DNA from: a virus
Virus record (IMG/VR): IMGVR_UViG_3300030060_004796
Span: 1 to 64,000 of that record
DNA: 64,000 bases
Reading direction: 5' to 3' (one strand)
The stretch's first letter is position 1. Each line of letters starts with the position of its first letter. The notes beneath the pieces are model-generated. The model saw only the letters and a list, made by a program, of their open reading frames with translations. It was not told where the DNA came from and did no database searches. The position numbers and the translations under genes are program-made. Shown here in pieces: positions 19,801-35,400 of this stretch.

Positions 19801-22204
19801 AGCAGATTGTACATTTGGAGGAAGTTTTTCTAACATTGCACAAATTCAAGCTATTGCGCAAGATATAATTACTGCTATTACACCGCCTCCTGTTTATTCA
19901 TGTCCACCTGGATGTGACTTAGTAACAACATCTGCAGGTCAATTTTATTGTGAATGTATTGATTATTTAGATCCTGAATATATTGATATTACATCACCGG
20001 TTAATATAGAGGATGATTTATATTTTAAAGATGTTTCATGGACAGTAAGTTACGATCCTAAATATAAAGCATGGATGTCTTTCCATGATTGGCATCCACA
20101 ACTAATGATTCCTAGTTTAAATCATTTCTTTACAACAAATACTTATGAAGATCTAGAATCACAGCCAAGTTGTCCTCCAGGATTTACTTGGAATCCTACA
20201 ACACAAACATGTTGTCAAACATACCAAGGAGAATTTGAGGCAGATATTATTGTTGATGAAGTTCCTGTTGAAATAGATATTGATTCTATTCCTTGTAAAA
20301 TAGATATTGTATTAGCTTTAGATGCATCAGGATCTATGGGTCTTGGAGCTGACGGAGCTAATGATAATTGGAATGCTGCTGAAATTTTTATAAATGAGTT
20401 TGTATTTAACCTAGCAGATGAAATGATTATAGGTAATATACAAATAGGATTAAATCATTGGTCTAATCCAACTTTTGCAGGTATTAATGCAGCTAGCGGA
20501 CTTAATCCAATTACAAATGATACATACCCATCAATAGGAAATGGAAATACAGATGTTATTGGTGGTGTTACATATACTTATGCACAAGCAGTAGTACCTG
20601 ATGGAACAGGTGGTTTATCTATGACTAATAATCCAAGATTAGTATATGATGCAAGTGGAAGTGCAGTAACAACACAGTTTTGTTTTGCAACTAATCCTCA
20701 ACAGGGTACTGCAACTGAAATGGCAGAAGCTTATCAGTATTCTCAAAATCAATTATGGGAGGTAAAAGCTTCTGCTCTAGGAGATAGAACATTAGATCCT
20801 GGATATAGAAGAATATTAGTTTTTATATCTGATGGTGGAGATTTTGTAACTCACCCACTTAATCCTGTAGCTAATCCACCAAACATGGATGGAACTGCAT
20901 TTGGTAATACAGGCGGAGGTGCTTTACATAGTCCTCCTAGTAGTGGTGGTGGAATGATAACACCACAAAATAATACTGTAGATTGGAGTAATAACAATGT
21001 AGGGGGTGCTGGAACAGATGCTCTAATTAATGGTCAACAAGTACATTCTCAAAATATAACTATTTTTGCAAGCAATGGAGGAGGTGCACCAGCTGCAGGA
21101 AGTCAAACTGGGTATGAAGCTGTTGCAAATTGTGCTACTTATGGAACTTGTAATAATATGTGGGATGTAGATACAGGTCCAGGATGTAATCCTTTACAAG
21201 ATTGCCCATCAACAGTTGCAAGTGCAATAAGTAGTAATTTATGTACACTTCCTCCTGTTTGTATTTGTCCTCCAGGATATGAAAGAATAACTAGCAATTT
21301 AGATGGTACTGCACCACCTCACCAAGTTTATAGTGATCTAGATGATTGTGAACCAGAAAGAGCTGGTATATGTAGAAAATTAGAATGTGAATGTGATGTT
21401 GCTAATTTACCAATACCAACTATTCCTACTACAACAACAGGAAACTGCCCAACAGATATTTTAAATGGAATAGCTTTATACTACAATGAAGACACTTTTG
21501 TAGGAGATCCATCTTGGACAGGATACTCTAGTAATCCTGTAATGTGTCATTATGATTATGAATGTTGTGTTGAAGGTACAACAATTAGAGGTGGAATATG
21601 GAAACATAATGATAGATGTGATTTATTTGCAAACTACTATGGTAAAAATTATCCATGGGAAGTTGAATGGGTAGAAACTGTTGGTCAATCCGTAAATACT
21701 ATTAGAAGTATTGAATATCAATTAGAGTCATATATTTATAAAGGTAACTTAGCAGATGATTGTGGTGACAGGTTCCATGATTTAGATTGGAATTTTGATG
21801 AAGCTATTATTCATAACACAGAACAAGTTTCTGGATTACTAAGATTTAATTTAGATCCAAAAAATAATGTACCTTTGATAACTGAATACCCAATAATTAC
21901 AGGTAATGATATTCAAATACTATATAGTAAGGTAGAACAAAAATATAGATTTAATCAGTTCTGGGATATTACAAGAGACAGAGGAGAGTTTGATCCTAAC
22001 TGGAATTCATCAATATTTATAACACAGTTAAACGGTTACATAAGAGATCTAAATCAAGCAAACTTAGATTACTTTAAACCTTCCTTACAACGTAAGAAGT
22101 TTAGACATTACTGGAATAAAGTAGTTCTTAGAAAAAATATTTCAGGTAATAGAAAAATGATATTTAAATTAGCTAATACAAAAATTAATGCATCCTTTAG
22201 ATAA
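13805..22204 (+). CDS. Tail muzzle / stabilisation protein (P22 gp10-like) with two inserted vWA domains
   Basis: N-terminal 'FVKGMTKD...NAINNS...LGNEPAN', internal 'SWTVSYDP...WMSFHDW' and C-terminal 'IWKHN...NYYG..YP' resemble crAss-like muzzles; MIDAS DSSNS at 18869 and DASGS at 20321. Confidence 0.75.
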   Translation: MAEKQNTPKLQNTSDIDTDVFVKGMTKDPDSSMITKEQWTHARNAINNSVDGDLGTLGNEPANKQCSSAPFTIIGAIHLYGDKWVLFSTNNQQSEIGTWDDSECKYERIVNDFSCYQCLEQLGGIEETPCLNFNTQHLITGASKENFDCSWQVYWDDGVNPSRTLNLDNIPWKQNVISDEGADCVIYEDAIPLCLDCEKIRLAPLIDIPCIELSKSVDGGQLRNGSYQVYIAYVINDQKIGDYYGISNIQPLFAHEDMLSGLEIKISNLDKEFEYYELVIARNTQGEQTAKQIGFYSTEQTNISIDYINEKLPSKPLGTLPLTTPAYERSDKMYVVNDYLIRQGPTEQFDFNYQPLANNIHVHYTVTEFPDDYYAKGGNKPTFMRDEVYSFFIRFVYNTGEKSASYHIPGRAPYNWPGITDPAGNNPNVLDPWPGNNDLGTALWNQNGGLGTADVDRLFEVHNTADDGWNPAGIASNTLELQTDDGGRVIREGHMAYWESTERYPQDPVRWGDLCGQPIRHHKMPDETTAYVGMFEDPTGATVVNPNNFLDRTGQNNATINVLGVRFTNIAWPRFNASSDELCGPDNGAPTGPRIPNIVGYEILVGSREGNKSIIAKGITRNMRRYNLPNTSTGHEIGTGNLTGYMANYPFNDCNADPYLSAGNDWTYTRNGGIVNPGGNYTAGDTATNIFTFHSPDTSFNKPFLSPYELKSYGICTGTQVGNFVKSEKHPQHKLLRNISMWIAIIVGAGYAIGEMRGKKNKKMIPPKALNVGLVGFGEQHGGNRTTIVNTPSTSFANGWTAIATTTSASFNENTTARSGGRQGSAAPYDDGSNVVGGVVTGAGTSTAPTWAPIGSLGRLDTDGDQFMMANYNTNLANPLTGINSGAGGQGVLLSTATVAGAPKLFHSGSRALGMNIGYEPNVRNNMRNWGPNRGYIGAGEEWTYEGTRFESMPSLTQILFGAYQFMMFTAEGGQVIIDLIYNLVSYQDYAWKYNSQGLYWSTQQRSAGGVFRQLVNKGRYVGSSMQNLTANIRINNVQRPKTVVINTVTNGADFDPIGTFDQSRFCIGPTSTGGILGAWFNPGAEVNSTIGAHYCALKTNFTNQYGQIDQIKQIPVGCITYFADQIKPEDDHSPRDLDDMLFTTDIVYGGDCYINRYSEKVIMPFFWDFQKDMPDGMPYDYKLRANVPRPVFWMDTKKFELSQLVRDIVNFGWLISQITGGGGGGLSNSLPSGLFVLDRPTGDLGGDDGTNQTTGAGGIGAPSGGGPGALANAPNMAVSATQDNNRRSIFHVVNGYMYTHCNGVNEFYCESPINTAFRDWEDVDEKRHYDRLEYTDVDALFHADIIKKDNYYKYDTSLSKSRFNTQLISYGFIQARDYDPLVAEDCYTHYPKRLMYSLQAQLEAKKDFWRVFLPYNYKDFKNKVNVIKPVSKSGAMILFPHLSPVLWQGVDQLETDLGTKLTIGDGGLFSQPPQAIVNADLPHEYGSCESARSVVNTPSGLFFISQAQGKIFQYTQGLTNIADQGMKQWFNKYLPSILLKQFPEMEHCDSWIDNPVAGVGCQSVYDPNYDLVYFSKKDFECTLPECIDYVPCEGFVYNHSKCENVEPQACCPEGDDPYNPYVFVPGGPTCPPGFAVVSCLNGSPCCTDYSGNPPFPATITEPTCERIITLPAEEDQSSGQVDIVFAVDSSNSVDGAIPQNVGNMQNFVRTMITELNINNGITNGDIRVGLIHFGGGRAVRFPLFNGQQSSLPNSDEMFEFANQITLTNSVPTLLNWIGNPGAWNGTFHPADYRSTYGAASNSIANGGPSYDLPYGTDILAGIWGGQNLLYGLGARACPKVLITIFDGPMGYKCDGGGVAGANNPLAGSAGAGFFYTNTPYSVGGITGPDTFNGMTVPDPALVAAGTPAISTPDIRWDDASLGGGYDPCFNTNQGFAQTANAYDAQWFETNVRAAGNYTQQVPFIQKNYSIVVDPQGSAPTATHIAYSERYAGGGGLLPADCTFGGSFSNIAQIQAIAQDIITAITPPPVYSCPPGCDLVTTSAGQFYCECIDYLDPEYIDITSPVNIEDDLYFKDVSWTVSYDPKYKAWMSFHDWHPQLMIPSLNHFFTTNTYEDLESQPSCPPGFTWNPTTQTCCQTYQGEFEADIIVDEVPVEIDIDSIPCKIDIVLALDASGSMGLGADGANDNWNAAEIFINEFVFNLADEMIIGNIQIGLNHWSNPTFAGINAASGLNPITNDTYPSIGNGNTDVIGGVTYTYAQAVVPDGTGGLSMTNNPRLVYDASGSAVTTQFCFATNPQQGTATEMAEAYQYSQNQLWEVKASALGDRTLDPGYRRILVFISDGGDFVTHPLNPVANPPNMDGTAFGNTGGGALHSPPSSGGGMITPQNNTVDWSNNNVGGAGTDALINGQQVHSQNITIFASNGGGAPAAGSQTGYEAVANCATYGTCNNMWDVDTGPGCNPLQDCPSTVASAISSNLCTLPPVCICPPGYERITSNLDGTAPPHQVYSDLDDCEPERAGICRKLECECDVANLPIPTIPTTTTGNCPTDILNGIALYYNEDTFVGDPSWTGYSSNPVMCHYDYECCVEGTTIRGGIWKHNDRCDLFANYYGKNYPWEVEWVETVGQSVNTIRSIEYQLESYIYKGNLADDCGDRFHDLDWNFDEAIIHNTEQVSGLLRFNLDPKNNVPLITEYPIITGNDIQILYSKVEQKYRFNQFWDITRDRGEFDPNWNSSIFITQLNGYIRDLNQANLDYFKPSLQRKKFRHYWNKVVLRKNISGNRKMIFKLANTKINASFR

Positions 22205-25200
22205 TGAAGAAACCAAACCTTAAATATAATTTACCTAGTTATTCTGAAAAGTTTTTAGAATCTCTTAATCCTAGGATGCAGGCGTTAAGATCCTCATTAG
22301 GTTATAGTGATTATTCTCCTTTTAGAAATGAACCTTTCATAGATATTAAAACTCCAACGGGTATGATAGATATGTCAAATACAGGTATTCCATTATATGC
22401 TAATGGTAGGCTTTTAGCTCCATATTCTGGATTACATAATATGGGAACAACAAACGTTAGAGAAATACCTGCACGTAACATAGAAAATTTTACAGTCAAA
22501 TTTCCATTAAAAAAACATTTAGATAACAAGTTTAGACTTAGTGGAAATGTAAATCCATCAATTAATCTTAATAGTCCGTATTTATTAGATCTATATGGTA
22601 GATTAAGAGGAGAATATAATTTAAATAAAAATGTAAATATTTTTGGAGAAGCAACTACATCAACAACAGATGGTGTTAGTATTAATCCAGCAACAATAAA
22701 AGGTGGTTTAAATATTAATTTCCAAGATGGTGGTCAGTTAATGAGAGCTCAATATGGAATAGAACCTTATTTAGCAGTTCAAGATAATACATATGTTGAT
22801 ATACCACCACCACCTCCAGCACCAACAAAAGTTATAGATCCATGGCCTCAAGGTTCATATAGACCAGCTGATCCAGAACCTGCATGGTATAAAAAATTAC
22901 TTAATGTTGTAGCTCATCCAATGGAGGCTTTTGGTAGAAGTATTGCTAATCAAGATTGGTGGACAGGTGACTTGGGACAAGGAATACCAATGAGTCCACA
23001 ACATAGTGCAAGTACTTTGGGTGGTTTTGATTTGCTCAATACATTTGTTAATCCTGCTAGTTGGATAGAAGATGTAACTGATTCTGAATCTTTAGGTGAA
23101 GGTGCCCTTAATACAGCAATGATATTACCTATTTTTAAAGGTGGTAAAGTAATTAAACATGCAGATGAAGTTGTTGATGCTTCAAAACAAATAACTAAAG
23201 GTTCAGGTAAAGTAAAAATAGAAGATCCAAATGCATTATATAGAGTAGTAGATGTTCCTGTGGGAACAAGTGCAGATGAAATAGTTAAAGCTGCAGAGTA
23301 TGGCACAACAATACCAAAAGTAACAACTACAGGAAGACGTACAGGATATTCACAATTACAAAGAGAAACTCCTTTTGATGTATTAAATACTACTAGTAAT
23401 CAAGGATGGATTTTAGGTAGAGGAACAAATGATCCAGGTAATTTACTAAATTTATATGGAGGAAAAAATCCTTATGTAATAAAGATGGGTAGAGGAAATC
23501 CTTATGTAGGAGCAGAAAGTCTTAGTGCTATTAATCAAAGAACAGATATTTTAAGAAATTTTACTTTTCCATACACTCAAAATGTAGGAAAATGGAATCC
23601 ACTTAAAGGTCAATATGATTTACCTTTAGAACTGGGTGCAGGTGTATATACAACAGTTGGAAAAAGTGTAGATGATCTTGCCAAGATAATGCCAGGATCT
23701 ATTGTTAATCCTAATATGGTAAGTAGAGGTAGCAATAATATTACTACAATATTTGGTCCAAAAGGTTTTCAAGTTAGACAACCACAAGAAGTTTTACCAA
23801 TGAGTGAATATATAAAACGTGTAGGAAATAATCCTAATTTTAAATTTAATCTAGGAGGATCATTACCAAAAGCACAAGAAGGACCAGGCACTGATAATGA
23901 AAGATTAGATGCACATTCACTACATCCTGTTGCATCTCAGTCAAACTGGAAAGATTTACTAAGTTATAATATTAATCCATTAAATTGGCCTAATATTTTT
24001 AAACATAGTATAACAAGACCAGCTGAAATAGCTTTTCAAGGAGGGATAAATGAATGGTTAGCTGCAAATGTAAGACCTGGTGAGTATCCAAATATACCAC
24101 AATTAATAGGTGAACTTGAAGGTGGAAACCATTATATGAGAAGTATTAAAAATCCTGGTGGATATATTATGAATCAGGTAGATTCAGAGCCTTGGACAGA
24201 TAAGCAGGGAGATTTAACAATTGATGAAGAAGCTTGGAGAATGTCTTTGGGATTACCTGGACAACCTGGAGACATACCTAATAAATATATATTTAAATCA
24301 GATAATGTACCTTCTATAGGTGCAAATGAAGGAGATGTTTTTTATACTACAGATTTATTTGATTGGGATAAAGCAATTAATAAATTTAATAATCTAAGAA
24401 ACGAGTATGGTACAGAAGACTTTGATTTTTCTGATGTAGAAAATTTTAACCCAGCACAACGTTCTAGGGATCTAGACACTGAATATTGGAAGAAAAAAGA
24501 AGAGTATGAAGAAAGCATGAAGGATTCAGATGAAGAAATAGATTTTCATAGTACAGAAGAAGCTAAAATATTAAGGGAACAAATTAAAAACTTTGAGATG
24601 ATAAAAGGATATCACAAAGTACTAGATAAAAGTGGACAACCAATTCCTAATACTTATAGTTTTGTAGGAGGAGGATCTGATTATATAACGGATAGGGGGT
24701 TTGAAGAAGGCCACACCTTAGATCCTTTTGCAAATCTTACAATGAGTATGGGGGAAGATGATAAAGGTAGATTTATATCTTATTATGATAAATATGATTT
24801 TGATAGTCCAATAACTAGGAATTTTATAACTCCTATAAATTTCTATGATAAAAGATATATAAAACAAAATGATGATGGACAATGGATAATAGATCCAGAT
24901 CTAGATCCAGATCAACCAAGGAAACAAGATGGTGGTGGTGTAGACTTTAGCTCACTTCAAAAAGGAATTAAATGGGTTGAAAGTTTAAATGGTGAGTTAA
25001 TGAAAAATACACAATCATCTGCATCAGGTTACTATGGACAACTTTTTGATGAAATAGAATATGATGGAACAAGAGATGAATTTATTGCTGATACAACTTT
25101 TCAAGATGAGCTATTTAGAAAAAGAGCACATGGTGAAATTGAAGGTGTCCCAGGATTAATATCTAATGGAATAGAACTAGCAGAAGAATATAAAGATGTA

Positions 25201-28200
25201 GATCATGGACTAACTACTTTAGAAATAGCTGGTTTATCTAATATGCTAGGAAGACAAGGAACAAGAGAATATCTTGGAAATGTTATAAGAGATGGTAGAA
25301 CACTTGCAAATGTATTTCCACATTTATATGGAGATGATGTAAATCAAGCAAATAAAACACCTGATGAATATATTCAAAAGTTTAATGAAGGCCTAACAAA
25401 AAGAGAAGGTGGTGAATTTTTAAATAAAATAAGAAGACTAAATCAACAATTAAAAATATATAACTCTGGTGGTAGAATATCTCCACTAGCAAAAAAAGAA
25501 TTGATTGATCTAGAAATGATTAAACCTAAAATGCAAGGTGGAGGGTCAGTTCAACAAAGTTCTTATGTAACTAAAAGAGGAGATAATCTAAGTAGGATAG
25601 CTAGAAATAATAATATGACATTATCTGAGTTATTAGAATTTAATCCAAGATATTTAAATAACCCAAGTGCAATAGGAGTTGGAGATGTTATACAATTGTC
25701 TGATGCACCAGTTCAAAATAACTCTACACCTAATATGGTGTATGAAGTAAAGGGTGGAGATAGCTTATCAAAAATAGCAAGTCAATATGGTATAAGATAC
25801 CAAGATATTGCAGCATTAAATAATATAAATGATCCTACTAAAATAATGCCTGGACAGGTTATAAGACTTCCAGATAATGCTGTTGTTAGAGGATCTAATG
25901 TAACACAACAACAACATAGAGCACATTCAGTATATATACCTAGTCAAAGTAATGTTATTGTAAATTCAAATACTGGTACAAATGAAGTGTGGGCTAAAAG
26001 AGAACTAGATTCTGATGGAAATTGGAAAACTACAGGTAAACGTGCTTTAATCAATGAAATAAATAAAGATACTCAAGCAAATAGAATTGTTAGAGGTATG
26101 AATGATGTTGCTGAATCTGAAACAATAAATTATACAATTCAGAGTGGAGATATGCTAGGTAAAATAGCACGACAAAATGGTGTATCTGTACAAAAATTAA
26201 TGGAGGATAACAATATCACTGACCCTAGAAGAATACAACCGGGTCAAGAACTTACAATAAATAAGTCAACAGGAAATCCATATATTATTGTGGATGAAAA
26301 AGCTGGAAGAATGCATGTATATTATCCAGGAAATTCTGATCCAGTAAAGAGTTATCCTATTGTATCAGGATTAAATGAAGGAGATGCACAAACTAAAACA
26401 GTGATTAAATTCTTTAAGGATAATGAAGAAATACCACAAGAAGAACTTCAACCACTTATGGATAAACATGGTTTTGATGAGGTTGGACAAATTACATCTC
26501 TTCCAGGATATACTAGTGAAACAATGTGGGATCTTGGAAACAAATCAACGGGTGCTGGTGTTTACACTATTGATGCAGTAAATGAAAAAACTAAATATAT
26601 GGGAAATTCTTCTTCATTTGTATTAGCAAATCAAGCAGGTGATAGACCTGGTACAGTAATACACTCTACACCCAGTGCAAGTATGACAGGAAGATTAAGA
26701 GCATTAGATGAGGGTATGTCAGGTGATGAAGCTAGAGCATTAGGTATTGGTACAAATGGATGTATAAATGGAACTTGTAGTGCAATGACAGAATTATTTG
26801 AAAATCCTGATATAGGTAATGGAACACAAGTGTTTGTATTACCTGAATGGGAGGGAGATAACTTTGTATATGAAAATGGTCAAATAAACTTTTATACAAG
26901 ACAGTCAAATGATGAAAGATCAATGACATATGAAACAGAAAGCGGTCAAGTAATGGTGAATCCTCAAGGGTTAAATGAAACTCCAGGAAATAAGCAAGGT
27001 AATTATAAACCTATTAATATTACATTTGACAAAGAATACTATCAAAATAATTCTGAAAGATATGATGGAAGTGCTGACAATGAGAATGCAGAATTTAAAA
27101 AACATACACAACCATTTTTACAAGCATTGACAGGTAATAAAAAAACCATGATGGATAAATTTGGAATGGATGGAGATACATATAATGATCTGTCTATGAT
27201 TGCTTTTGGAATTTATGCTTATGAAAGTGGAATGGGAGATATTAATAGTAGTCTTGAAAATGCAACAAAATTTGCAGCAAAAGCTGGAGGTATGGGTCAA
27301 ACTAATCCAGACGTAGTTTCTAAATACAATACATATGGTTTAAGAGATCAAGATAATAGTATAGGTTTTACACAAATACAATGGCAATGGTTAGATGAAG
27401 AAGAAAAAGAAATGTTAGGGAAATTAGATATTGATGAATCTAACTATGCGGAACATTTAATGGATCCTGCAAAATCTGCAGATGTAACAATGGCTATATT
27501 ATACAACCGTCATAAAAATAATCAATCTGCAGTAAATATAAGAAATGATAAAGCTAGAGAAGAAGCAATAGCTAATGGTGAAGAATTTAAAGACAGTGAT
27601 AAAGAAGTTTATGATCCTTTTCTATATCTTCCAAAAACCTGGAATAAAGCGGATGGATATACAGATATGGTAAATAAATATACTGACTACATTACTGTAA
27701 CAGAAACAGATATTGATGATGTTGATAATAGTGTGATTGTCAAAGGAGAATACTCTGATGATAATGAAGCATATAACATAAGAGAAGAACTGAAAAGACA
27801 AGAAAATTTACATGGCCCTAATGCAGATTGGAAAAGTAAATCTACACAAATTATTGAAGATGTAGGTGATTTCCTTGGTGTAGATGGTTACACAGCTGAT
27901 GAAGGTGTAGTAGGAGATGTTCTTGACAAAGCTATGGACTATGTTGGAAAGGACGCAAAAGATGTAACATTTGGTAATATAGCATCAGATGTTTATGATG
28001 TAGGTGCGCAAGCAGTAGATAGAACTATAGATTCTGTTGTTGATGGTTATCAAGCTGTAACAAATGCTGCATCAGATGCTGCTGATGCTGTTGGTGAATG
28101 GTGGGATAATGTAGATTTGAATCCTCTTTGGAAACTAGGAGGAGAGTTTGGAGTAAAAAATCAAGTACAATTTTATGATGACTATATCAGTGGTGTATAC

Positions 28201-28332
28201 AAAGGAACAAGACAAGAAAATAGTGCAAATAAATTATATGATAAACTAAATAGAATGTATTACAATGATTCTAAGAAATCAGGTAAGAGTCAAATTGATG
28301 TTATGAGATCTATCCTGCATGGCAATAGGTAG
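22204..28332 (+). CDS. Internal cargo polyprotein: lysozyme/transglycosylase-like domains, 3 LysM, L,D-transpeptidase-like (YkuD) and other modules
   Basis: LysM at about 25564, 25741 and 26131; YkuD pattern 'IIVDEKAGRMHVY...IHST...TNGCING' (H 26662, C 26761); 'VES...SSASGYYGQ' (E 24979); 'YESG...GFTQI' (E 27223). Confidence 0.8.
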   Translation: MKKPNLKYNLPSYSEKFLESLNPRMQALRSSLGYSDYSPFRNEPFIDIKTPTGMIDMSNTGIPLYANGRLLAPYSGLHNMGTTNVREIPARNIENFTVKFPLKKHLDNKFRLSGNVNPSINLNSPYLLDLYGRLRGEYNLNKNVNIFGEATTSTTDGVSINPATIKGGLNINFQDGGQLMRAQYGIEPYLAVQDNTYVDIPPPPPAPTKVIDPWPQGSYRPADPEPAWYKKLLNVVAHPMEAFGRSIANQDWWTGDLGQGIPMSPQHSASTLGGFDLLNTFVNPASWIEDVTDSESLGEGALNTAMILPIFKGGKVIKHADEVVDASKQITKGSGKVKIEDPNALYRVVDVPVGTSADEIVKAAEYGTTIPKVTTTGRRTGYSQLQRETPFDVLNTTSNQGWILGRGTNDPGNLLNLYGGKNPYVIKMGRGNPYVGAESLSAINQRTDILRNFTFPYTQNVGKWNPLKGQYDLPLELGAGVYTTVGKSVDDLAKIMPGSIVNPNMVSRGSNNITTIFGPKGFQVRQPQEVLPMSEYIKRVGNNPNFKFNLGGSLPKAQEGPGTDNERLDAHSLHPVASQSNWKDLLSYNINPLNWPNIFKHSITRPAEIAFQGGINEWLAANVRPGEYPNIPQLIGELEGGNHYMRSIKNPGGYIMNQVDSEPWTDKQGDLTIDEEAWRMSLGLPGQPGDIPNKYIFKSDNVPSIGANEGDVFYTTDLFDWDKAINKFNNLRNEYGTEDFDFSDVENFNPAQRSRDLDTEYWKKKEEYEESMKDSDEEIDFHSTEEAKILREQIKNFEMIKGYHKVLDKSGQPIPNTYSFVGGGSDYITDRGFEEGHTLDPFANLTMSMGEDDKGRFISYYDKYDFDSPITRNFITPINFYDKRYIKQNDDGQWIIDPDLDPDQPRKQDGGGVDFSSLQKGIKWVESLNGELMKNTQSSASGYYGQLFDEIEYDGTRDEFIADTTFQDELFRKRAHGEIEGVPGLISNGIELAEEYKDVDHGLTTLEIAGLSNMLGRQGTREYLGNVIRDGRTLANVFPHLYGDDVNQANKTPDEYIQKFNEGLTKREGGEFLNKIRRLNQQLKIYNSGGRISPLAKKELIDLEMIKPKMQGGGSVQQSSYVTKRGDNLSRIARNNNMTLSELLEFNPRYLNNPSAIGVGDVIQLSDAPVQNNSTPNMVYEVKGGDSLSKIASQYGIRYQDIAALNNINDPTKIMPGQVIRLPDNAVVRGSNVTQQQHRAHSVYIPSQSNVIVNSNTGTNEVWAKRELDSDGNWKTTGKRALINEINKDTQANRIVRGMNDVAESETINYTIQSGDMLGKIARQNGVSVQKLMEDNNITDPRRIQPGQELTINKSTGNPYIIVDEKAGRMHVYYPGNSDPVKSYPIVSGLNEGDAQTKTVIKFFKDNEEIPQEELQPLMDKHGFDEVGQITSLPGYTSETMWDLGNKSTGAGVYTIDAVNEKTKYMGNSSSFVLANQAGDRPGTVIHSTPSASMTGRLRALDEGMSGDEARALGIGTNGCINGTCSAMTELFENPDIGNGTQVFVLPEWEGDNFVYENGQINFYTRQSNDERSMTYETESGQVMVNPQGLNETPGNKQGNYKPINITFDKEYYQNNSERYDGSADNENAEFKKHTQPFLQALTGNKKTMMDKFGMDGDTYNDLSMIAFGIYAYESGMGDINSSLENATKFAAKAGGMGQTNPDVVSKYNTYGLRDQDNSIGFTQIQWQWLDEEEKEMLGKLDIDESNYAEHLMDPAKSADVTMAILYNRHKNNQSAVNIRNDKAREEAIANGEEFKDSDKEVYDPFLYLPKTWNKADGYTDMVNKYTDYITVTETDIDDVDNSVIVKGEYSDDNEAYNIREELKRQENLHGPNADWKSKSTQIIEDVGDFLGVDGYTADEGVVGDVLDKAMDYVGKDAKDVTFGNIASDVYDVGAQAVDRTIDSVVDGYQAVTNAASDAADAVGEWWDNVDLNPLWKLGGEFGVKNQVQFYDDYISGVYKGTRQENSANKLYDKLNRMYYNDSKKSGKSQIDVMRSILHGNR

Positions 28333-28340
28333 CTCAAATA

Positions 28341-28372
28341 TTAGCAAATCTCATGATTATTTAGTATATTAA
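28341..28372 (+). promoter_or_regulatory. Putative late promoter TTAG-N20-TATATTAA
   Basis: Same architecture as 1381-1412; in the 59-nt gap before 28392. Confidence 0.55.
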
Positions 28373-28391
28373 TAAAGTAAACTGTAACTTA

Positions 28392-31300
28392 ATGTTTTAT
28401 TATAACAATCCATATATTAAAGGTTTTGAACACGGTGGTGAGCACTGGATGAATGTACTTGGTGAAGAAGTTGATCCATCTGACATAACTACTGATGGAA
28501 TTTACTTTAAAACTGATGCTGATGGTATGCAATCTAAACATGTATATTCAAGAGGTGCATGGCAACAAGGAACAGGTCCTAGTAGTAGTAATAATAACAA
28601 TAATAATACTCAAAACAATCCTCCCAATAATACACAAAGTAATACACAAAGTAATACACAAAGTAATACACCAACTGAAACAGAAGAAGGAGTTTATGCT
28701 GATCATGATGATGCTTATGATTATAAAGTAATTGATGGTGTTTGGTACACAAGAAAAAAAGGATCAACAGAAGAATGGATTAGTTTAGCTGAAAATGAAG
28801 AAGCTACAAATAAATTAAATTCAGCATATCCAGAAGCAATAAGTACAGACAATGCTACAAATGATGACGAAAAAACAGATGATGATATTGTAGAAGAAGC
28901 AAATAAAAATATTGAAGGAGATAATAATGCTGTATATTATGATGGAGAATTTAGATCTCCTGAAGAAGCTAATTTATTATCTGGTGTAGGTGACACAGGT
29001 TTATTTGATTTAGTAAAGGCTATAGATACAACTTACGATAGCTTTAAGGATGAAAACTATTATGATCCAGGAACAAGAATGGATTATATGAAAATAGATT
29101 TTAAAAATACATCAGGTGAAGGGTTGTATTTTGATGAAGAAAGATTTTCTAAAAATCCTAATAAACCAGGTAGTTTTTTAATAGATGAAGAGCAGGCACA
29201 AGAACAGGACATGCAGCAGTTTCTTGATGATAGACACAAAAGAAATCCAAAATTATATTCTAAAGTAAAAGATTTTGACATAGATCTATATAACAAGACA
29301 GGACACCTAGACTATAGAAAAGGATTATTTAACAGAAAGCATGAAGGATTCTTAGGAGATCAATTAGAAAATAAATATGGAGACGCTTCACATATAGGTT
29401 GGACAATGGATAAAATGGGTAACTATGAAGATGCATTTGATTACTTAACACAAAATCCTGATGACCCAACTAAATTTAATCAACAAGATTTTGATGATGG
29501 ATTTGGAGGTATACCATTTGATCCTAACAACCCTTTAAATTATGACTTAAGTGATGAGTATAGAAATAGTCCAAAACATAATCCATATATAGAATATGGT
29601 GATCATGATAATCCTAATATAATTCAAAACAAAATGGGAGATGGAAGGTATAGTAAAGTGCCACAGTTTCCACTTACACCAGAATCTCCTGACTTTATTC
29701 AACCAGATCCTAAATCAGATCCAGATCCAGATATTGAATCAGATTTAAATATTAAAAGTGCAGAAGATATTGCTGCAGAAGAAGAAGCAAAAAAACTAAA
29801 AGAACAACAGTTAGACTATATAGAAGAACAATTAAGAAAGTCACAGAAAAAACAATATGGTGGTATGTTTCAAAATGGAAGTGGTAGTTGGTTAGATAAC
29901 TTTAGTACAGAAAACATAATTAAACGTTTTTCTCCAAACACTCATAAAAAAATAAAAAATGTAGAAAGTCAGTATGAAGGATATAGTAATCCAGATGCAA
30001 ACCGTATTTTAAATATGTTTCTAGGAAATGATGCAAACTATGAATTGCAAAATGTAGATGCATATAATTTAGATGCTGATATAGTAAATACTAATACAGG
30101 TAAAGTAGATGAAAAATTAACAAACTTTGCAATGAGAAATATTGGTAATGCAAAAGATTTAAATAATATTTATCAAGATTATAATTTAGATAATGCTAAT
30201 TCAGTATGGGATTGGGCTAACCCTTTCTTTTTCAATGATGATGCATCAGACAATAGAGAAACACTTTATGATGTAGCAACTGATATTTATAAAACATATC
30301 CTAATGAAGTAAACAGACATTGGGTAAATTTGAGAGACAAAACATTACAACAAGTAGATGATGCATGGGTAGAAGGAAGAGATAATGTTGTTAATACAGT
30401 AGATGATGCTTGGGTAAATACAAGAGATACTGTATCAAATACAGCAAAAGATGTTTGGAATTGGGCCACTGATTGGCAAGATGGTGGTGAACCAACATAT
30501 CAAGTAGAGGTTATTAAATACCCTCTTGGTTATAAAAATATGCCACCAGGTCACATTGAATCAAGAATATTAAATCCAGATAGTTTACCAGAAAAATACA
30601 AAAAATTAGATAAAGATGGTGATCCAATTTATAAACCATATTTAAATGCTTGGATTAGTGGAAATAAAAAAGTAAGATATAATGCAGATGATGATTATAC
30701 ATCTGGTATACAAACACTTATCTTAAATCTAAATGAATCAGATTTAAAAAAATATATGAATACAGCTCAACAAAGTTCAAGGGGTGAAAGTATAGATACA
30801 TGGTTTGGAAGTATACCAACAGCATGGGGTGGAGGTCCAGGTGACTATGATTTTATAACTAATAATTGTGCAGATCAAACGTGTACAGCATTTGGATTAA
30901 ATGAGTCTGCATATACAATGGGAGGAATAACAACACCACAACAAGTATTTGATGCACTTCAGGAGGATCCAAGATTATTGGCAGGATCAATAAAAGGAAA
31001 TCAAACAAATCTAGAAAGAGTGGGAAAAGGTATTCATGGTATTACAAATCTATATAAAGTACCATGGAATATGGGTAAACATTTAGTTAATAAAACTGGA
31101 GAAGGGATAGATTATATAGAAGATAATACAGATCTTCAATTTGACTGGGAAGGTGTTAAGAATATTCCTGACTATCATTATGATAATTGGATTCAACCAA
31201 CTGGTGAGTTTATAGAAGATACTTATGAAGATACTAAATCAGGTCTTAGAGATGTAGGAAATGCAATCAATAGTTTCTTTGGAGGTAGCAGTAGTTACTG

Positions 31301-32429
31301 GAAGCAGGGTGGAGAATTACCTAAGTATCAGTTTGCAGGTTCTCCCTTTAGTGTGCAAAATCAACAAGGTATTTTACAAGGAGCAAATACAGGATATGAT
31401 CTATATGGTAATCAAATAGAACCATTTAAGTTTGGTAATCTTTCAGTATCAAATCCTAACTTATCATTGACAAATTCAAACTTAACAACACCTCCTGAAA
31501 AGACTGAACCATTCTTTAACTCTGAGGATAGAATGTTTGCATATAATCAATCTGTAAATAGATCAATGGATGAATGGGATGCATTTACTGCAGATATGAA
31601 TGATAGAATACAAAACCCATCTTTAATCCAAACAGAAACAGATATACTACAAACTCCTTCATTAGAGATTGACCCTAATCTACAAAAAGATATGGAACTT
31701 AGATCAGATATGTTTGACCATAGGTTACAAAGAACTGATCCAGATGCATGGATGAGAAAAAAGAAAAAAGAAATGAGGGATAGTGAAAGAGAGTTTAAAA
31801 AGAATATGGAAGATCTAAGAGATGATATGCCTAAATATGAAGGTACAAGAAAGAATCTAAGAGATTATGAAAAAGCTAAAGAATTAGGTTTTGAAGATGA
31901 TTTCTCTGATCCGGATGATCCTAAGTTTATGATGGCAGAATATAAAGACTATCTTAAAAGTGAAGAAGAAGAAGATCTTAGAAGAGAGTTAAGAGAAGAT
32001 CAATTAAATGAAGATAACAAAGATAGAGGTATGTCATTTGGAGATAAAGCATGGGCAGGGTTTAATAGATTTATGGATAGTAAAGGTGTTCAAACATTTA
32101 GTAAAATTGGACAAGGTGCAGTAAGAATAGCTAAACCTTTAAATAGTATTATAGAAAATTACAGATCAGAACAGCAAAAAGATAGTATGATGAAAAATGC
32201 ATATCTATCAGACAATATGTTTGCAGCTAAAGATGCAGATATAACAGGAAGTAAAGGAGATTATGATGCTAACACAGGTATATTTAGACCAGATGATAAA
32301 GTAGTAGTTGGTCAAACTTATGCAATGCATGGTGGTGAGCATATATATAACAGAGGAGGAGAGATGGAAATAGATATGAATACATATAAACAATTAGTGG
32401 CCGCAGGGGCAGAAATAGAAATTATATAA
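28392..32429 (+). CDS. Internal cargo polyprotein containing a permuted papain-like Cys peptidase module
   Basis: Acidic, modular 1345 aa; 'PGHIES' (H 30552) precedes 'YDFITNNCAD' (C 30867); six GG linkers. Confidence 0.65.
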   Translation: MFYYNNPYIKGFEHGGEHWMNVLGEEVDPSDITTDGIYFKTDADGMQSKHVYSRGAWQQGTGPSSSNNNNNNTQNNPPNNTQSNTQSNTQSNTPTETEEGVYADHDDAYDYKVIDGVWYTRKKGSTEEWISLAENEEATNKLNSAYPEAISTDNATNDDEKTDDDIVEEANKNIEGDNNAVYYDGEFRSPEEANLLSGVGDTGLFDLVKAIDTTYDSFKDENYYDPGTRMDYMKIDFKNTSGEGLYFDEERFSKNPNKPGSFLIDEEQAQEQDMQQFLDDRHKRNPKLYSKVKDFDIDLYNKTGHLDYRKGLFNRKHEGFLGDQLENKYGDASHIGWTMDKMGNYEDAFDYLTQNPDDPTKFNQQDFDDGFGGIPFDPNNPLNYDLSDEYRNSPKHNPYIEYGDHDNPNIIQNKMGDGRYSKVPQFPLTPESPDFIQPDPKSDPDPDIESDLNIKSAEDIAAEEEAKKLKEQQLDYIEEQLRKSQKKQYGGMFQNGSGSWLDNFSTENIIKRFSPNTHKKIKNVESQYEGYSNPDANRILNMFLGNDANYELQNVDAYNLDADIVNTNTGKVDEKLTNFAMRNIGNAKDLNNIYQDYNLDNANSVWDWANPFFFNDDASDNRETLYDVATDIYKTYPNEVNRHWVNLRDKTLQQVDDAWVEGRDNVVNTVDDAWVNTRDTVSNTAKDVWNWATDWQDGGEPTYQVEVIKYPLGYKNMPPGHIESRILNPDSLPEKYKKLDKDGDPIYKPYLNAWISGNKKVRYNADDDYTSGIQTLILNLNESDLKKYMNTAQQSSRGESIDTWFGSIPTAWGGGPGDYDFITNNCADQTCTAFGLNESAYTMGGITTPQQVFDALQEDPRLLAGSIKGNQTNLERVGKGIHGITNLYKVPWNMGKHLVNKTGEGIDYIEDNTDLQFDWEGVKNIPDYHYDNWIQPTGEFIEDTYEDTKSGLRDVGNAINSFFGGSSSYWKQGGELPKYQFAGSPFSVQNQQGILQGANTGYDLYGNQIEPFKFGNLSVSNPNLSLTNSNLTTPPEKTEPFFNSEDRMFAYNQSVNRSMDEWDAFTADMNDRIQNPSLIQTETDILQTPSLEIDPNLQKDMELRSDMFDHRLQRTDPDAWMRKKKKEMRDSEREFKKNMEDLRDDMPKYEGTRKNLRDYEKAKELGFEDDFSDPDDPKFMMAEYKDYLKSEEEEDLRRELREDQLNEDNKDRGMSFGDKAWAGFNRFMDSKGVQTFSKIGQGAVRIAKPLNSIIENYRSEQQKDSMMKNAYLSDNMFAAKDADITGSKGDYDANTGIFRPDDKVVVGQTYAMHGGEHIYNRGGEMEIDMNTYKQLVAAGAEIEII
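28629..28670 (+). repeat. 12-bp tandem repeat aatacacaaagt x3.5 (NTQS)
   Basis: Directly visible in the sequence. Confidence 0.9.
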
Positions 32430-32432
32430 ATT

Positions 32433-35400
32433 ATGAAAGTAAAAATAAAAAAATTACCAAAAGGTTTTTCCATGCATGATGGAAAAGTGTACAAAGACGG
32501 GGGTACAACAGGTGATCAATTTAACTATGGTTTAGTGGGAGTTCCTTCAACAGGTTCTTCAAATGCTTCTAATCCATTTAGTTCAGTTAATTATTCTCTA
32601 AACCCTGTGCCTAGAGAAGAAGCAAACCTTGAAGCAGAAAAAGGTGAGACAGTATTAACAGATATGAACAATGATGGAAATTTTGAATTATACAACATCA
32701 CTGGTAATAGACATAGTAGTGGAGGTACCCCGTTAAACCTACCACCACAATCTTTTATTTATTCTGATACAACTTCAATGAAGTTAGATAAATTTGAGTT
32801 AGCAGAAATGGGATTAACTTCTCCAAAAAAAATTACCCCTGCTAAAGTTTCTCAAAACTTTCAATTAAATAATTTTATTGCATTACTAGATGATGATCAC
32901 ACTGATAATATAACAAGAGATACTGCAGAGTATATGTTATCAAAAAATAAAAAATCATTATCTCAATTAGCATTTTTACAAGAAGCAAAGAAAAAATTTG
33001 AAGATGGTGTTCCATTAGCTGCATATCCATATCTACAAGAGAAGGGATTAAATCCTTTAGAATTTTCTCAAAAAATTCAAAATATATCACAAAAGGAAGC
33101 AGAGCAACAGATGATGATGCAACTTCCTATTGAGCAACAAATAGAAATTTTAATGGCTAAAAGACAAGCTGCACAACAACAACAAGCTATGCAACAACAA
33201 CAAGCTATGCAGCAGCAAGGTATGGTACCACCAAGTCAAGGTGGTCAAATAGGAATGCAGGGTGAAAACATTCAAGCTGAAGCTATGATGCCTCAACAAG
33301 GAGGTATGCCACCAATGGCACCACCTCAAGGAATGATGCCTCCAATGCCACCTAATATGCAACCTAACATGCAGTCTAATATGCAACCAGCTATGGCTAG
33401 ACGTGGAGGTCAGCTATCTCACCTACTACCAAAAGCTCAAAACGGACTAACAGAATTTACAGCACAAGCTCCAATATATAATGCAGTTGGTGAGTGTGTT
33501 ATGAACTGTAGACAAATAAACGTTCAACCTGTAGCTGATTTTGAAATAGGTGCTGGTATGTCTGCAGGTAAAATAGGTGATGAGTTCACAGGCTCTGGAA
33601 AACTTACATCAGGTTTTTCATTTAATCCTAATATGGGACAAGGTGGTCTTGATGCTTATATTGGTGGTAACATAGGAGGAAGAGCAACATCTGTTAATCA
33701 AGATGATGTTACTTTAAGTCCATTTGCTAATCTAGTAGCACGTGGAGGATATTCTGGTCATTTACCTCCAGTTAATTTTAGAAATAGACAAGGCTTACCT
33801 TTTGGTCTGGGAGCTTTTTATAATAAAAGCTTAATGGGTAATGAAGGTAATGTTTTTGGAGGATACGGTCAGTTAGGTAACTTCAATATTACTGGAGGAT
33901 ATAATTTTGACACTAATAGCCCACAGTTTACTGCTGGTATTGGAATACCTATTAGACAAAAAGGTGGTGAAGATTTTGAACCACATATGATGTATGATCC
34001 AAAATCAGGAAAAGGTTTTATGGCAAACACTTATGAAGATCATTTACGTATGAAAGAAATGGGCTATCTTCATCAAGAAGAAATGAGAAATGGTGGGTCA
34101 TTACCTTCTTATCAAGATACAGGAGAAACTGGTAACTGGGAAGGTGATCTTTCTTTAAACTTTGGTGATACAAATAGACCAACAGTGTTTATGTCAGGAA
34201 GAAATATAACATCAAGTGGAACAGATGGTCAAACTGGATTTGGTGATATGAATGTTGATAAATACCGTGGTTGGAATTTTGGACTTAATCCTAATGCAGA
34301 AGGAAAAATGCCATGGGGTTGGTACGATCATGATACTGATACAAGGTTTACATCAGATATGGATTTAAGTCAGTATACATTTGACAGATCAAATACTAAG
34401 ATGAATTTTGATAGAAGTATGGGTATAAATAAATATTCTACAGATCCAGGAAATAGAAGTAGAATGTATGCAGAAGGTAGACTTGGTGCTGGATGGGGTG
34501 TAGGTAATGTTTGGGATAGAGTATTTCCTAATTCTCCAGATAATAATTTAATGGAGTCAAAACATGTTCATTATTTAAATCCTTATCTAAGTGGTGAGGC
34601 TGGTATAGATATTGGTCTTAATAAGGACAATGAATCATTAGGATTAAAAGGAACATATAATACAGGATGGAGTCCATATGGAAAAGGATTTGGTATAGGT
34701 GCTAATTTTAAATCAGACAACTTTGGAGTTAATATAGGAGTTGATGATCTATTTAGAGGTAATCAACCTCAGTTTGGTATGTCATATAATTTTAGAAAAG
34801 GTGGTCAACCATTGCGTAAAGCACAAGGAGGTATGGATATTAAGTATGATATATATAATAGAAATATGCTTAATAACGTAATACCAGCTGATAAAACAAG
34901 GGTTGCAGTAAAACCTCCTATATTACCTTTAATAAATAATGATCAACCTGTAATAGAACCTGGTACTCAAGGAAGTATTAATAGTCCTATTGTTCAGAAT
35001 ACTGAACAAATTTTGGACAATATGCAATCATCATATGAAAATCAGTTAGCTACTTATCAGGCAAATTATCAGAGTCTTATGAATCAATACCAGACTCAGA
35101 TGAATAGTATGATTCCTCCAGCAAGTCAACAAGCTAGTTTACTTGGAGCAACAAACTACCCTGATGAAAGTAAGATTGCAGTTTGGGAAACTCATATTGA
35201 GAATGGTGGACCACCACCAGAGAATCCAGATATTAATTATACAACAGCGTATAAGAATGTGTATAATAAAGATTTTGAACCTGAAGAAAAAAATGATAGA
35301 TCAAATAGACCTATTAATAATATAACAAATGTATATGATCAACAAGATCCAGATGCAGGAAATCAAAGTCAAGGCCCTCCAGGAATGGGATACCCAGGAA

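Follow-up and report, generated by a model that had tools for sequence, protein, structure and literature searches.

The window analysed here, a stretch of 64,000 nucleotides (positions 1 to 64,000 of IMG/VR record IMGVR_UViG_3300030060_004796), is from a marine crAss-like phage. The Crassvirales rank among the most abundant phages known. The module described below lies in a 1345-aa ORF near the muzzle gene (Table 1), at a position that fits the Crassvirales cargo slot, which has the muzzle gene on one side and the virion RNA polymerase gene on the other. PMC10172136 gives the gene order and the cargo of crAss001, in which this slot encodes the cargo proteins gp45 and gp46. Judged by synteny with crAss001 only, the 1345-aa ORF probably encodes a phage cargo protein that is likely injected with the DNA. 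A tblastn search of the whole ORF against 50,697 GenBank phage records gave no match, and the PHROG search of the ORF returned a single row (E 0.099) located outside the module.

Table 1. Positions of the module, its host ORF and neighbouring features in the window
Feature	Position	Strand	Basis or remark
Muzzle gene	13805-22204		matches muzzle family PF25731 (Pfam)
Neighbouring 2042-aa cargo protein	22204..28332	+	Pfam: three LysM domains and a YkuD L,D-transpeptidase-like domain
1345-aa ORF hosting the module	28392..32429	+	ORF list; second gene after the muzzle gene
Upstream junction KQYGG, boundary of the preceding module	29850..29864	+	homology breakpoints
Exchangeable cassette, ORF residues 695-974	30474..31313	+	translation
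Bounding motif WQDGG, cassette start	30474-30488	+	translation
Predicted catalytic core (~172 residues), permuted papain-like domain	30486..31001	+	AlphaFold2 model, fold matches
Invariant His in PPGHIE, A1 position 23, ORF residue 721	30552..30554	+	proposed general base
Invariant Asn in (V/I)N(R/A)W, A1 position 54, ORF residue 752	30645..30647	+	next core strand
Conserved Tyr, A1 position 121, seven residues N-terminal to the Cys	30846..30848	+	alignments
Invariant Asn-Cys, A1 positions 127-128	30864..30869	+	Cys (30867-30869), ORF residue 826, proposed nucleophile
Accessory motif IEDNTDLQFDWEGVKNIPDYHY	31116..31181	+	87 residues after the Asn-Cys motif
Bounding motif WKQGG, cassette end	31299-31313	+	translation

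Module boundaries and homologues

Translation of the cassette reproduced exactly the series of motifs read by the earlier note, WQDGG...PPGHIES...GDYDFITNNCADQT...WKQGG, with the His before the Cys. The module has its core in common with ~80 proteins of uncultured phages, in which Gly-His, Asn and Asn-Cys do not vary. An exhaustive phmmer search yielded 46 representative proteins (six at E<=1e-30), and a profile search added 49 more clusters. The 44-sequence alignment (A1, with residue numbering starting at 30486) showed that G22, H23, N54, N127, C128 and P151 are invariant and that Y12, E25, W56, Y121, A129, C133 and T149 are at least 90% conserved. His23 is invariant in 44 of 44 sequences of A1 and in 17 of 17 of a second alignment (A2), in which Asn54, Asn-Cys and Tyr121 are also invariant. 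Of 86 proteins, a set that includes two of the window's own, 81 match a His...Asn-Cys regular expression; the misfits are fragments and one protein, P0048, which was rejected as a homologue because its Ig-like tandem repeat is a repeat-driven false positive. The module is far more than a chance pattern. The accessory motif IEDNTDLQFDWEGVKNIPDYHY lies 82-183 residues downstream of Asn-Cys in 12 of the 71 domain-bearing proteins, which account for nearly all of the 14 matches to this motif in the whole protein set; the motif also occurs in loci L002-L004, L014, L015 and L023. One short stand-alone homologue was placed on a viral contig. Neither the module nor the stand-alone form had a relative in 185,579 prokaryote genomes searched with exact short peptide patterns, which is weak evidence.

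Comparisons with relatives showed that the module moves between proteins and that the homology breakpoints coincide with GG motifs, so that the earlier description of a cassette in a GG-punctuated protein holds. The homology of P0004 and P0007 to the ORF ends at residue 493/494, beside the GG at residues 490-491. Residues 696-986 recur at 73% identity inside P0059, an orthologue of the upstream LysM/YkuD protein (BLAST), and the combination of the module with the C-terminal part of the LysM/YkuD protein is found in P0059, P0060, P0063, P0068, P0071, P0062 and P0008. In P0004, the true orthologue of the ORF, the flanks are about 75% identical and the module 49%.

Predicted fold and closest known systems

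Searches with the module and the whole ORF gave no Pfam, PHROG or PDB sequence model that matches the module; besides the PHROG row outside it, they returned only photosystem and septin rows at E about 1. The models PF05708, PF13387, PF25218, PF05903 and PF04970 gave no match over the whole phage genome. For Peptidase_C97 (PF05903) there was none at E<=1 on the module and none at E<=10 on the genome, and the LRAT/PLAAT model (PF04970) matched neither; the LRAT signature NCEHF is absent, with NCADQ in its place. Peptidase_C92 (PF05708) gave no match in a search whose control did recover the E. coli members, and the TseH model (PF25218) gave none either, though it also matched no control genome. 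The module and the genome were without match to Lnb_N (PF13387) at the 22.2-bit cut-off. Lnb_N/DUF4105 is nevertheless the only Pfam family that recurs among the homologues, always sub-threshold (5 of 17, best E 0.018; 1 of 44, E 0.0017). Alignment of the family profile with E. coli YiiX by hhalign gave a probability of 0.5%, with the Cys-containing motifs paired in the local alignment, and nothing was found with a thin C92 alignment.

The AlphaFold2 model built with the 44-sequence alignment is ordered over residues 1-172 (mean pLDDT 88, pTM 0.83), whereas the model from the single sequence was unusable (pLDDT 33). In the ordered model His23 opens the strand of residues 23-28, and Cys128 is located at the first turn of the helix of residues 128-135. 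In a structure search of 48,161 chains the top nine matches are all circularly permuted papain-like (NlpC/P60) proteins. TseH (6v98) is the best match (Z 7.9, rmsd 4.2 Å, 134 of 183 residues aligned) and MARTX RID (5xn7) the second (Z 7.8 over 134 residues); values of 7-8 are middling by the tool's own scale, and the case for the fold rests on the coherent match list. YiiX (2if6, Z 7.0) and a B. cereus peptidase (3kw0, Z 6.6) are followed by a Euglena complex subunit, Aichivirus 2A, DeSI, CLN5 and PLAAT4, and below rank nine there are only unrelated PEBP-like rows with Z 3.0 or less. The match list holds no canonical NlpC/P60 or CHAP structure. TseH is also the top Foldseek match (E 0.024), and the language-model neighbours are IcsB_M (top, 0.95), TseH and Lnb_N clusters, with scores of 0.94-0.95.

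Thus, the fold class proposed earlier stands: the predicted His-bearing strand precedes the helix-start Cys, and the match list supports a circularly permuted papain-like (NlpC/P60-type) domain. The more specific label PPPDE/DeSI/LRAT-like is apt for the shared class, in which PPPDE/DeSI (PF05903) and LRAT/PLAAT (PF04970) likewise have His before Cys, but not for affinity, since DeSI-1 (2wp7, Z 4.5), PPPDE1 (3ebq, Z 4.2) and PLAAT4 (LRAT/PLAAT, 7zot, Z 3.2) are more distant than the matches at Z 7.0-7.9 and their Pfam models do not match. The permuted NlpC/P60 class is characterised by a Cys/His/polar triad plus an additional conserved tyrosine (PMC3142127). This hallmark is present in the invariant H23, N54 and C128 and the conserved Y121, with putative roles for the residues: Asn54 is the proposed third triad residue and Tyr121 a candidate for the extra tyrosine.

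The closest known systems each share some features with the module. TseH, a T6SS effector of Vibrio cholerae, has the same permuted order of His, polar residue and Cys (triad Glu81-His64-Cys172, PMC11573676) and is likewise an enzyme that an injection machine brings into the envelope of another cell. However, it is ~10% identical to the module without an HMM match, its third residue is Glu rather than Asn, and it is a single-domain protein with an immunity partner, whereas the module forms a cassette within a giant phage cargo protein. Lnb (DUF4105), which N-acylates Bacteroides lipoproteins via a proposed Asn66-His49-Cys148 triad, has the triad types, the order His...Asn...Cys and the N-C motif in common with the module (PMC11573676), and it comes from the phylum infected by crAss-like phages. 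Unlike the phage module, Lnb is a housekeeping enzyme and an integral membrane protein with five predicted helices; reading of the ORF showed no hydrophobic helices flanking the module. RID resembles the phage module in being one effector among the several modules of a giant protein that is delivered, but MARTX modules are freed by a separate, dedicated protease domain, and RID and Shigella IcsB, at ~10% identity to the module, are lysine N-epsilon-fatty acyltransferases acting on eukaryotic proteins. In YiiX/YaeF (Peptidase_C92) a conserved Tyr accompanies a permuted Cys/His/polar triad, and YiiX binds lipid (PMC3142127); YiiX begins with a signal-peptide-like leader as do some stand-alone homologues; their Cys motif, however, is Y-C-S-E rather than N-C-A. 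The crAss001 proteins gp45 and gp46 have the same gene position after the muzzle gene and are giant proteins also carrying wall-active modules. The ejected T7 protein gp16, with its transglycosylase domain, is another example of an enzyme module in an ejected phage protein. No permuted NlpC/P60 module is described for the crAss001 cargo (PMC10172136), and none was found in literature searches. The module is a new sequence family within a known superfamily, in a new delivery context.

Candidate functions in phage entry

The homologues share polypeptides with LysM, YkuD, SLT and DUF2272 modules. Among the stand-alone homologues, P0023, P0086 and P0108 have signal peptides and P0084 has the lipobox LIAAC. 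Together, the LysM, YkuD and SLT partners and the exported stand-alone homologues point towards the host envelope. The literature associates the permuted type with lipid-like substrates and not with peptidoglycan (PMC3142127, PMC12994826). Phospholipase activity has been described for Tox-Act1 and for TseH (PMC3142127, PMC12994826, PMC11573676), although TseH was inactive in a mass-spectrometry phospholipase assay and active only in a fluorescence assay (PMC12994826). On the predicted fold and this context, we give an even chance that the module belongs to an unnamed permuted papain-like family and works after ejection as a hydrolase or transferase on the acyl bonds of lipids or lipoproteins. 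The caveat attached to the earlier proposal, that the enzyme could be an amidase or acyltransferase with the envelope of the host as its target, is better supported than the linker protease that it qualified.

The main rival is a peptidoglycan amidase or endopeptidase that cuts stem peptides or cross-links of the host wall during entry, as is the case for the canonical NlpC/P60 and CHAP domains in virion proteins of phages. The partner modules and the export signals, which fit a periplasmic target, are consistent with this reading, and TseH was initially proposed as a cell-wall endopeptidase (quoted in PMC12994826). However, the structural neighbours are all of the permuted type with its lipid-like substrates, and the canonical wall-cutting folds are missing from the match list, making an amidase rather unlikely.

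Still less probable is an effector that would modify proteins of the host in its cytoplasm, for instance by attaching fatty acyl groups to lysines, as RID and IcsB do, or by removing a modifier. The second rank of RID in the fold search and the lead of the IcsB_M clusters among the language-model neighbours favour it. SET domains are present in three of the proteins that bear a homologue, as would be fitting for action in the cytoplasm, and according to PMC10172136 the cargo of crAss001 probably gets there. The signal peptides, the lipobox and the LysM/YkuD partners nevertheless point outside the cytoplasm, and RID and IcsB act on eukaryotic membrane-bound proteins. We know of no bacterial target class for acylation of this type.

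The earlier note had taken the module as a candidate processing enzyme for the GG linkers, a DeSI/PPPDE-like protease that would cut the cargo after Gly-Gly in the virion or after ejection. The fold class contains Gly-Gly-specific isopeptidases (DeSI-1, PPPDE1), the module sits between two GG junctions, and its Y-x5-N-C motif is one that we take to resemble that of DeSI/PPPDE. Analysis of co-occurrence showed, however, that the module is not coupled to the linkers. Among 27 related phage records only 5 carry it, and among the 18 that are at least 90% complete only 3 do, whereas the strict GGxLPKAQ linker is present in 15 of 28 records, 11 of which are without the module. Six of these 11, complete genomes with 1-5 linkers each, have no trace of it in an unfiltered six-frame profile search. 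One weak profile match (E 0.0095) in a module-less genome was rejected, as the His part is missing and the Cys is not preceded by Asn. The Peptidase_C97 model does not match the module, PPPDE1 is without the third polar residue (PMC3142127) whereas Asn54 is invariant in the module family, and the exported stand-alone homologues have no polyprotein to process. With so many relatives carrying GG-LPKAQ linkers without the module, the processing role was not borne out; on these distributions the module is probably not a protease for the Gly-Gly linkers, and we consider the proposal very unlikely. The GG junctions may be explained at least as well as boundaries of module exchange. A non-catalytic structural or docking domain that keeps the papain-like fold, in line with the many cargo regions regarded as packing material (PMC10172136), is very improbable, because the His, Asn and Asn-Cys are invariant down to ~25% identity while the rest varies freely, which is typical of an active enzyme.

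The acyl-bond enzyme in the host envelope, as the preferred reading, builds on the established conservation, predicted fold, cassette behaviour and independence from the GG linkers, and we infer its site of action and substrate. The His-Asn-Cys triad and the conserved Tyr would form the catalytic set of a previously unnamed family of thiol enzymes, carried as an exchangeable cassette by the giant proteins whose genes directly follow that of the muzzle in marine crAss-like phages. By gene order in synteny with crAss001, these cargo proteins would be loaded into the virion and leave it before the DNA does. The target of the Cys in the host envelope would be an acyl ester or amide bond, with a membrane lipid or a lipoprotein as the most probable substrate, and the enzyme would act as a phospholipase, a deacylase or an enzyme of acyl transfer. 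The envelope may thus be loosened or remodelled locally, beside the peptidoglycan-binding and -cutting modules of the same proteins. More specifically, and only tentatively, the module may be a virion-delivered Lnb/TseH-like acyl enzyme that strips or moves acyl chains of Bacteroidota phospholipids or lipoproteins and opens the envelope for the DNA.

If true, the permuted NlpC/P60 class would gain its first enzyme of phage entry, and the capsid-borne phospholipases of animal viruses would have a prokaryotic counterpart. The predicted fold puts the module next to effectors with which bacteria inject their rivals (TseH, Tox-Act1) or their hosts (RID, IcsB). Its removal as an explanation of the Gly-Gly linkers means that the linkers need another one, and exchange junctions, docking peptides and sites for a different protease are candidate roles. 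The ~80 clusters are covered by neither Pfam nor PHROGs models and might be described as a domain family of their own. The cargo proteins of Crassvirales are largely unannotated; one recurrent cargo module now has a predicted fold, a proposed catalytic triad and a testable chemistry.

Sequence conservation and predicted fold of the module

Translation of the window reproduced exactly the module text quoted in the earlier note, including its His and Cys (Table). A phmmer search of the full library collected 46 representative proteins, 27 of them at E ≤ 1e-10. Tara and other aquatic metagenomes are the source of homologues, and the marine Virus NIOZ-UU157 encodes one. The part common to the homologues corresponds to residues 8–180 of the module stretch, and the position of the domain varies greatly among proteins 171 to 3028 aa long. 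In a 44-sequence alignment, numbered from window position 30486, Gly22-His23, Asn54, Asn127-Cys128 and Pro151 are invariant, and conservation is 90% or higher at Tyr12, Glu25, Trp56, Tyr121, Ala129, Cys133 and Thr149. The module therefore represents a genuine domain family, in which a His...Asn...Tyr...Asn-Cys constellation is conserved. The 1130-aa protein P0048, whose 81-residue tandem repeat occurs in at least nine identical copies, was listed only through summed weak repeat scores and was discarded as unrelated.

A second Cys lies five residues past the catalytic Cys (N-C-A-D-x-x-C). At least 90% of the cargo-borne forms keep it, and the exported stand-alone homologues have another residue in its place; its role may be structural only, or that of a redox guard protecting the nucleophile. 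The motif IEDNTDLQFDWEGVKNIPDYHY occurs 82–183 residues past the Asn-Cys in 12 of the 71 module-bearing proteins and almost nowhere else. Some of its carriers share only ~30% core identity; lid, propeptide and docking element are candidate roles for it.

The structure model built without an alignment was useless (pLDDT 33), and the one built with the alignment reached a pLDDT of 88 and a pTM of 0.83, with residues 1–172 ordered. In this model His23 is placed at the start of a strand (23–28) and Cys128 at the start of a helix (128–135), a predicted papain hallmark in permuted order. Aligning the model structurally with 48,161 PDB representatives gave TseH (6v98, Z 7.9), MARTX RID (5xn7, 7.8), YiiX (2if6, 7.0), a permuted peptidase of B. 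cereus (3kw0, 6.6), a Euglena complex subunit (4.8), Aichivirus 2A (4.6), DeSI (2wp7, 4.5), CLN5 (3.5) and PLAAT4 (3.2) as the top nine matches, below which unrelated PEBP-like proteins appear at Z 3.0 or less. The individual Z values are middling, yet the list of matches to the model appears coherent. TseH is also the only notable Foldseek match in the PDB (E 0.024). A viral structure library contained one true homologue, its weak matches including poxvirus G6R-type and DUF4105 proteins, and the nearest clusters by protein language model are IcsB_M, TseH and Lnb_N (0.94–0.95).

The module had no match in Pfam or PHROGs, nor among PDB sequences in single-sequence and profile searches, and the C92, Lnb_N, TseH, C97 and LRAT models had no match over the whole phage genome. 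The sole recurrent signal, below threshold, is Lnb_N/DUF4105, seen in 5 of 17 short homologues (best E 0.018) and in 1 of 44 sequences at E 0.0017. The triads proposed for Lnb and TseH are Asn66-His49-Cys148 and Glu81-His64-Cys172, respectively (PMC11573676). The phage family keeps this order with His23, Asn54 and Cys128, although the spacing between His and Asn is longer and runs through a variable loop. An extra conserved tyrosine is a feature of permuted NlpC/P60 enzymes (PMC3142127), for which Tyr121 is a candidate. From the lack of curated matches, the sub-threshold Lnb_N signal and the triad order, the module is therefore a new sequence family within a known superfamily. It lies nearest to the TseH, DUF4105-Lnb, RID-IcsB and YiiX side, rather than to LRAT or to PPPDE/DeSI. 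The PPPDE/DeSI affinity put forward in the earlier note is not supported, as DeSI scores only Z 4.5 against 7.0–7.9 for TseH, RID and YiiX, and the C97 model is unmatched.

Exchange of segments between putative cargo genes and the GG linkers

The IMG/VR virus record is 120,198 bp long and has a completeness rating of 100%; the window covers its first 64 kb. Structural-protein PHROGs lie upstream of the muzzle gene, and ORFs of 2042, 1345, 1842, 1138, 5193 and 1850 aa follow it on the same strand. Cargo proteins at this slot in crAss001 are packed in the capsid and tail, and their ejection is thought to be partly unfolded (PMC10172136). The gene order suggests that the 1345-aa product is likewise a cargo protein. 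Its N-terminal third, in which no recognisable domain was found, contains an Asn/Thr/Gln-rich low-complexity run.

Features of the window and of the viral locus L147
Feature	Position	Strand	Remarks
Capsid-protein-like ORF	1473-2912		query for related records
Muzzle ORF	13805-22204	+	PF25731 (Crassvirus muzzle family) match, E 1.3e-26; vWA domain also present
Three adjacent putative cargo genes	22204-37961		exchange of segments between GG motifs
Strict GGxLPKAQ linkers (examples)	23854-23877; 35865-35888
Module-hosting ORF, 1345 aa	28392-32429	+	putative cargo, from gene order
N-terminal third of this ORF	28392-29860		NNNNNNTQNNPPNNTQSNTQSNTQSN
Module	30474-31313		between WQDGG and WKQGG
Module His	30552
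Module Cys	30867
Second Cys	30882-30884
IEDNTDLQFDWEGVKNIPDYHY motif	31116-31181
Next ORF downstream	32433-37961
Locus with the stand-alone homologue, L147	7357-8516		on IMGVR_UViG_3300025141_000020 (210,568 bp)

BLAST comparisons of relatives with the cargo ORFs of the window bore out the earlier description of the module as a cassette. Residues 696–986 of the 1345-aa ORF are found with 73% identity in P0059, the remainder of which is orthologous to the LysM/YkuD protein encoded upstream (67%). In P0004, the orthologue of the 1345-aa ORF, the flanks (95–493 and 970–1345) are 74–76% identical and the module only 49%; residues 494–692, from KQYGG to WQDGG, are missing and are replaced by residues 333–512 of the next ORF downstream. 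These alignments point to shuffling of the module among the cargo ORFs of the relatives. The breakpoints lie at KQYGG (490), WQDGG (698) and WKQGG (973), and at the GG pairs 325 and 511 of the next ORF. Over all homologues, a set picked through the module itself and with non-independent endpoints, 19 of the 45 distinct internal breakpoints are no more than 12 residues away from a GG, against a mean of 7.7 under random placement (19 reached in 1 of 5000 simulations). Segments between GG motifs are exchanged among three adjacent cargo genes, as the relatives P0004, P0007, P0059 and P0071 show. Because breakpoints fall at GG and inter-GG segments move between genes, the GG linkers may be exchange junctions, instead of or besides cleavage sites.

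All three cargo ORFs share a longer recurring linker, x-[KRQY]-x-GG-[SEQDG]-LPKAQ-x-G. The 27 large related records used for comparison were collected through the capsid-protein-like ORF (31–70% identity). With the phage's own genome counted, 15 of 28 records contain the strict GGxLPKAQ pattern at the DNA level, each of them on a single strand, and the reversed control pattern had no match in the same 28. The strict linker is encoded by nearly identical 24 bases, GGWGGW-NNN-TTACCWAAAGCWCAA, a similarity that codon bias could explain.

The module profile matched 5 of the 27 related records; among the 18 with a completeness of 90% or more, it matched 3. The linker is present and the module absent in 11 records, six of which, complete or nearly so (capsid identity 31–59%), were translated whole in six frames and searched with the unfiltered profile. 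The module was absent from all six: the profile scored E 1.9e-59 on the window and at best E 0.0095 in these records, a match that proved spurious on inspection. The same six records carry one to five GG...LPKAQ-type linkers each, in ORFs of 767–5447 aa. The earlier note had proposed the module as a candidate processing enzyme for the GG linkers, and this outcome, many linker-bearing relatives lacking it, is one that the note itself counted against the proposal. With 11 such records, six read whole, the module is probably not a dedicated enzyme of the GG linkers, linker cleavage as such not being disproved, and that it is a GG-linker protease is highly improbable.

Extracytoplasmic context and putative substrate

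The domains that share proteins with the module are LysM, YkuD, SLT and DUF2272. A SET (lysine methyltransferase) domain, unexpected for phage cargo, occurs in three giant module-bearing proteins and suggests that some cassettes act on host proteins. As read by eye, stand-alone homologues of 171–185 aa start with classic signal peptides, and a 241-aa one carries the lipobox LIAAC. Together, the partner domains and the export signals favour an extracytoplasmic target. The stand-alone proteins P0023, P0086, P0084 and P0038, spanning these lengths, are on short metagenome contigs. The 17 members of one stand-alone cluster come from several samples, and a pattern scan of 185,579 prokaryote genomes found no relatives of the stand-alone form. 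A further copy with a signal peptide lies on the T4-like viral contig of L147, near genes for a Gp23 capsid protein and an S77 prohead protease and directly after that for a membrane-anchored DUF2459 protein. Since DUF2459 is also classed as papain-like (PMC10318531), L147 holds two adjacent thiol-enzyme genes.

The module would be ejected with the phage cargo and attack acyl bonds of host envelope lipids or lipoproteins. RID and IcsB carry out lysine fatty acylation. Permuted clades with lipid-like substrates include YiiX, with a bound fatty acid, and LRAT/PLAAT, with phospholipase A and acyltransferase activities; phospholipase activity is known for Tox-Act1 and, in one assay, TseH, and Lnb performs lipoprotein N-acylation (PMC3142127, PMC12994826, PMC11573676). 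Because of these substrates and the extracytoplasmic context, the reading ranked first, with about an even chance of being right, is an enzyme that is packaged as gene order suggests, is ejected, and acts on acyl bonds in lipids or lipoproteins of the host envelope. That the module, found beside LysM, YkuD and SLT domains, is a peptidoglycan amidase is unlikely, and a cytoplasmic modifier of proteins, set against the extracytoplasmic target favoured here, is somewhat less likely still. Least credible of all, below even the linker protease, is that a domain with invariant His, Asn and Cys is non-catalytic.

A literature search found no such module described in the ejection proteins of crAss-like or other phages. 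The module adds a new sequence family to a known enzyme class, which it places in a new delivery context. It is of interest to specialists in phage entry and effectors, its chemistry being putative and its fold class well known.
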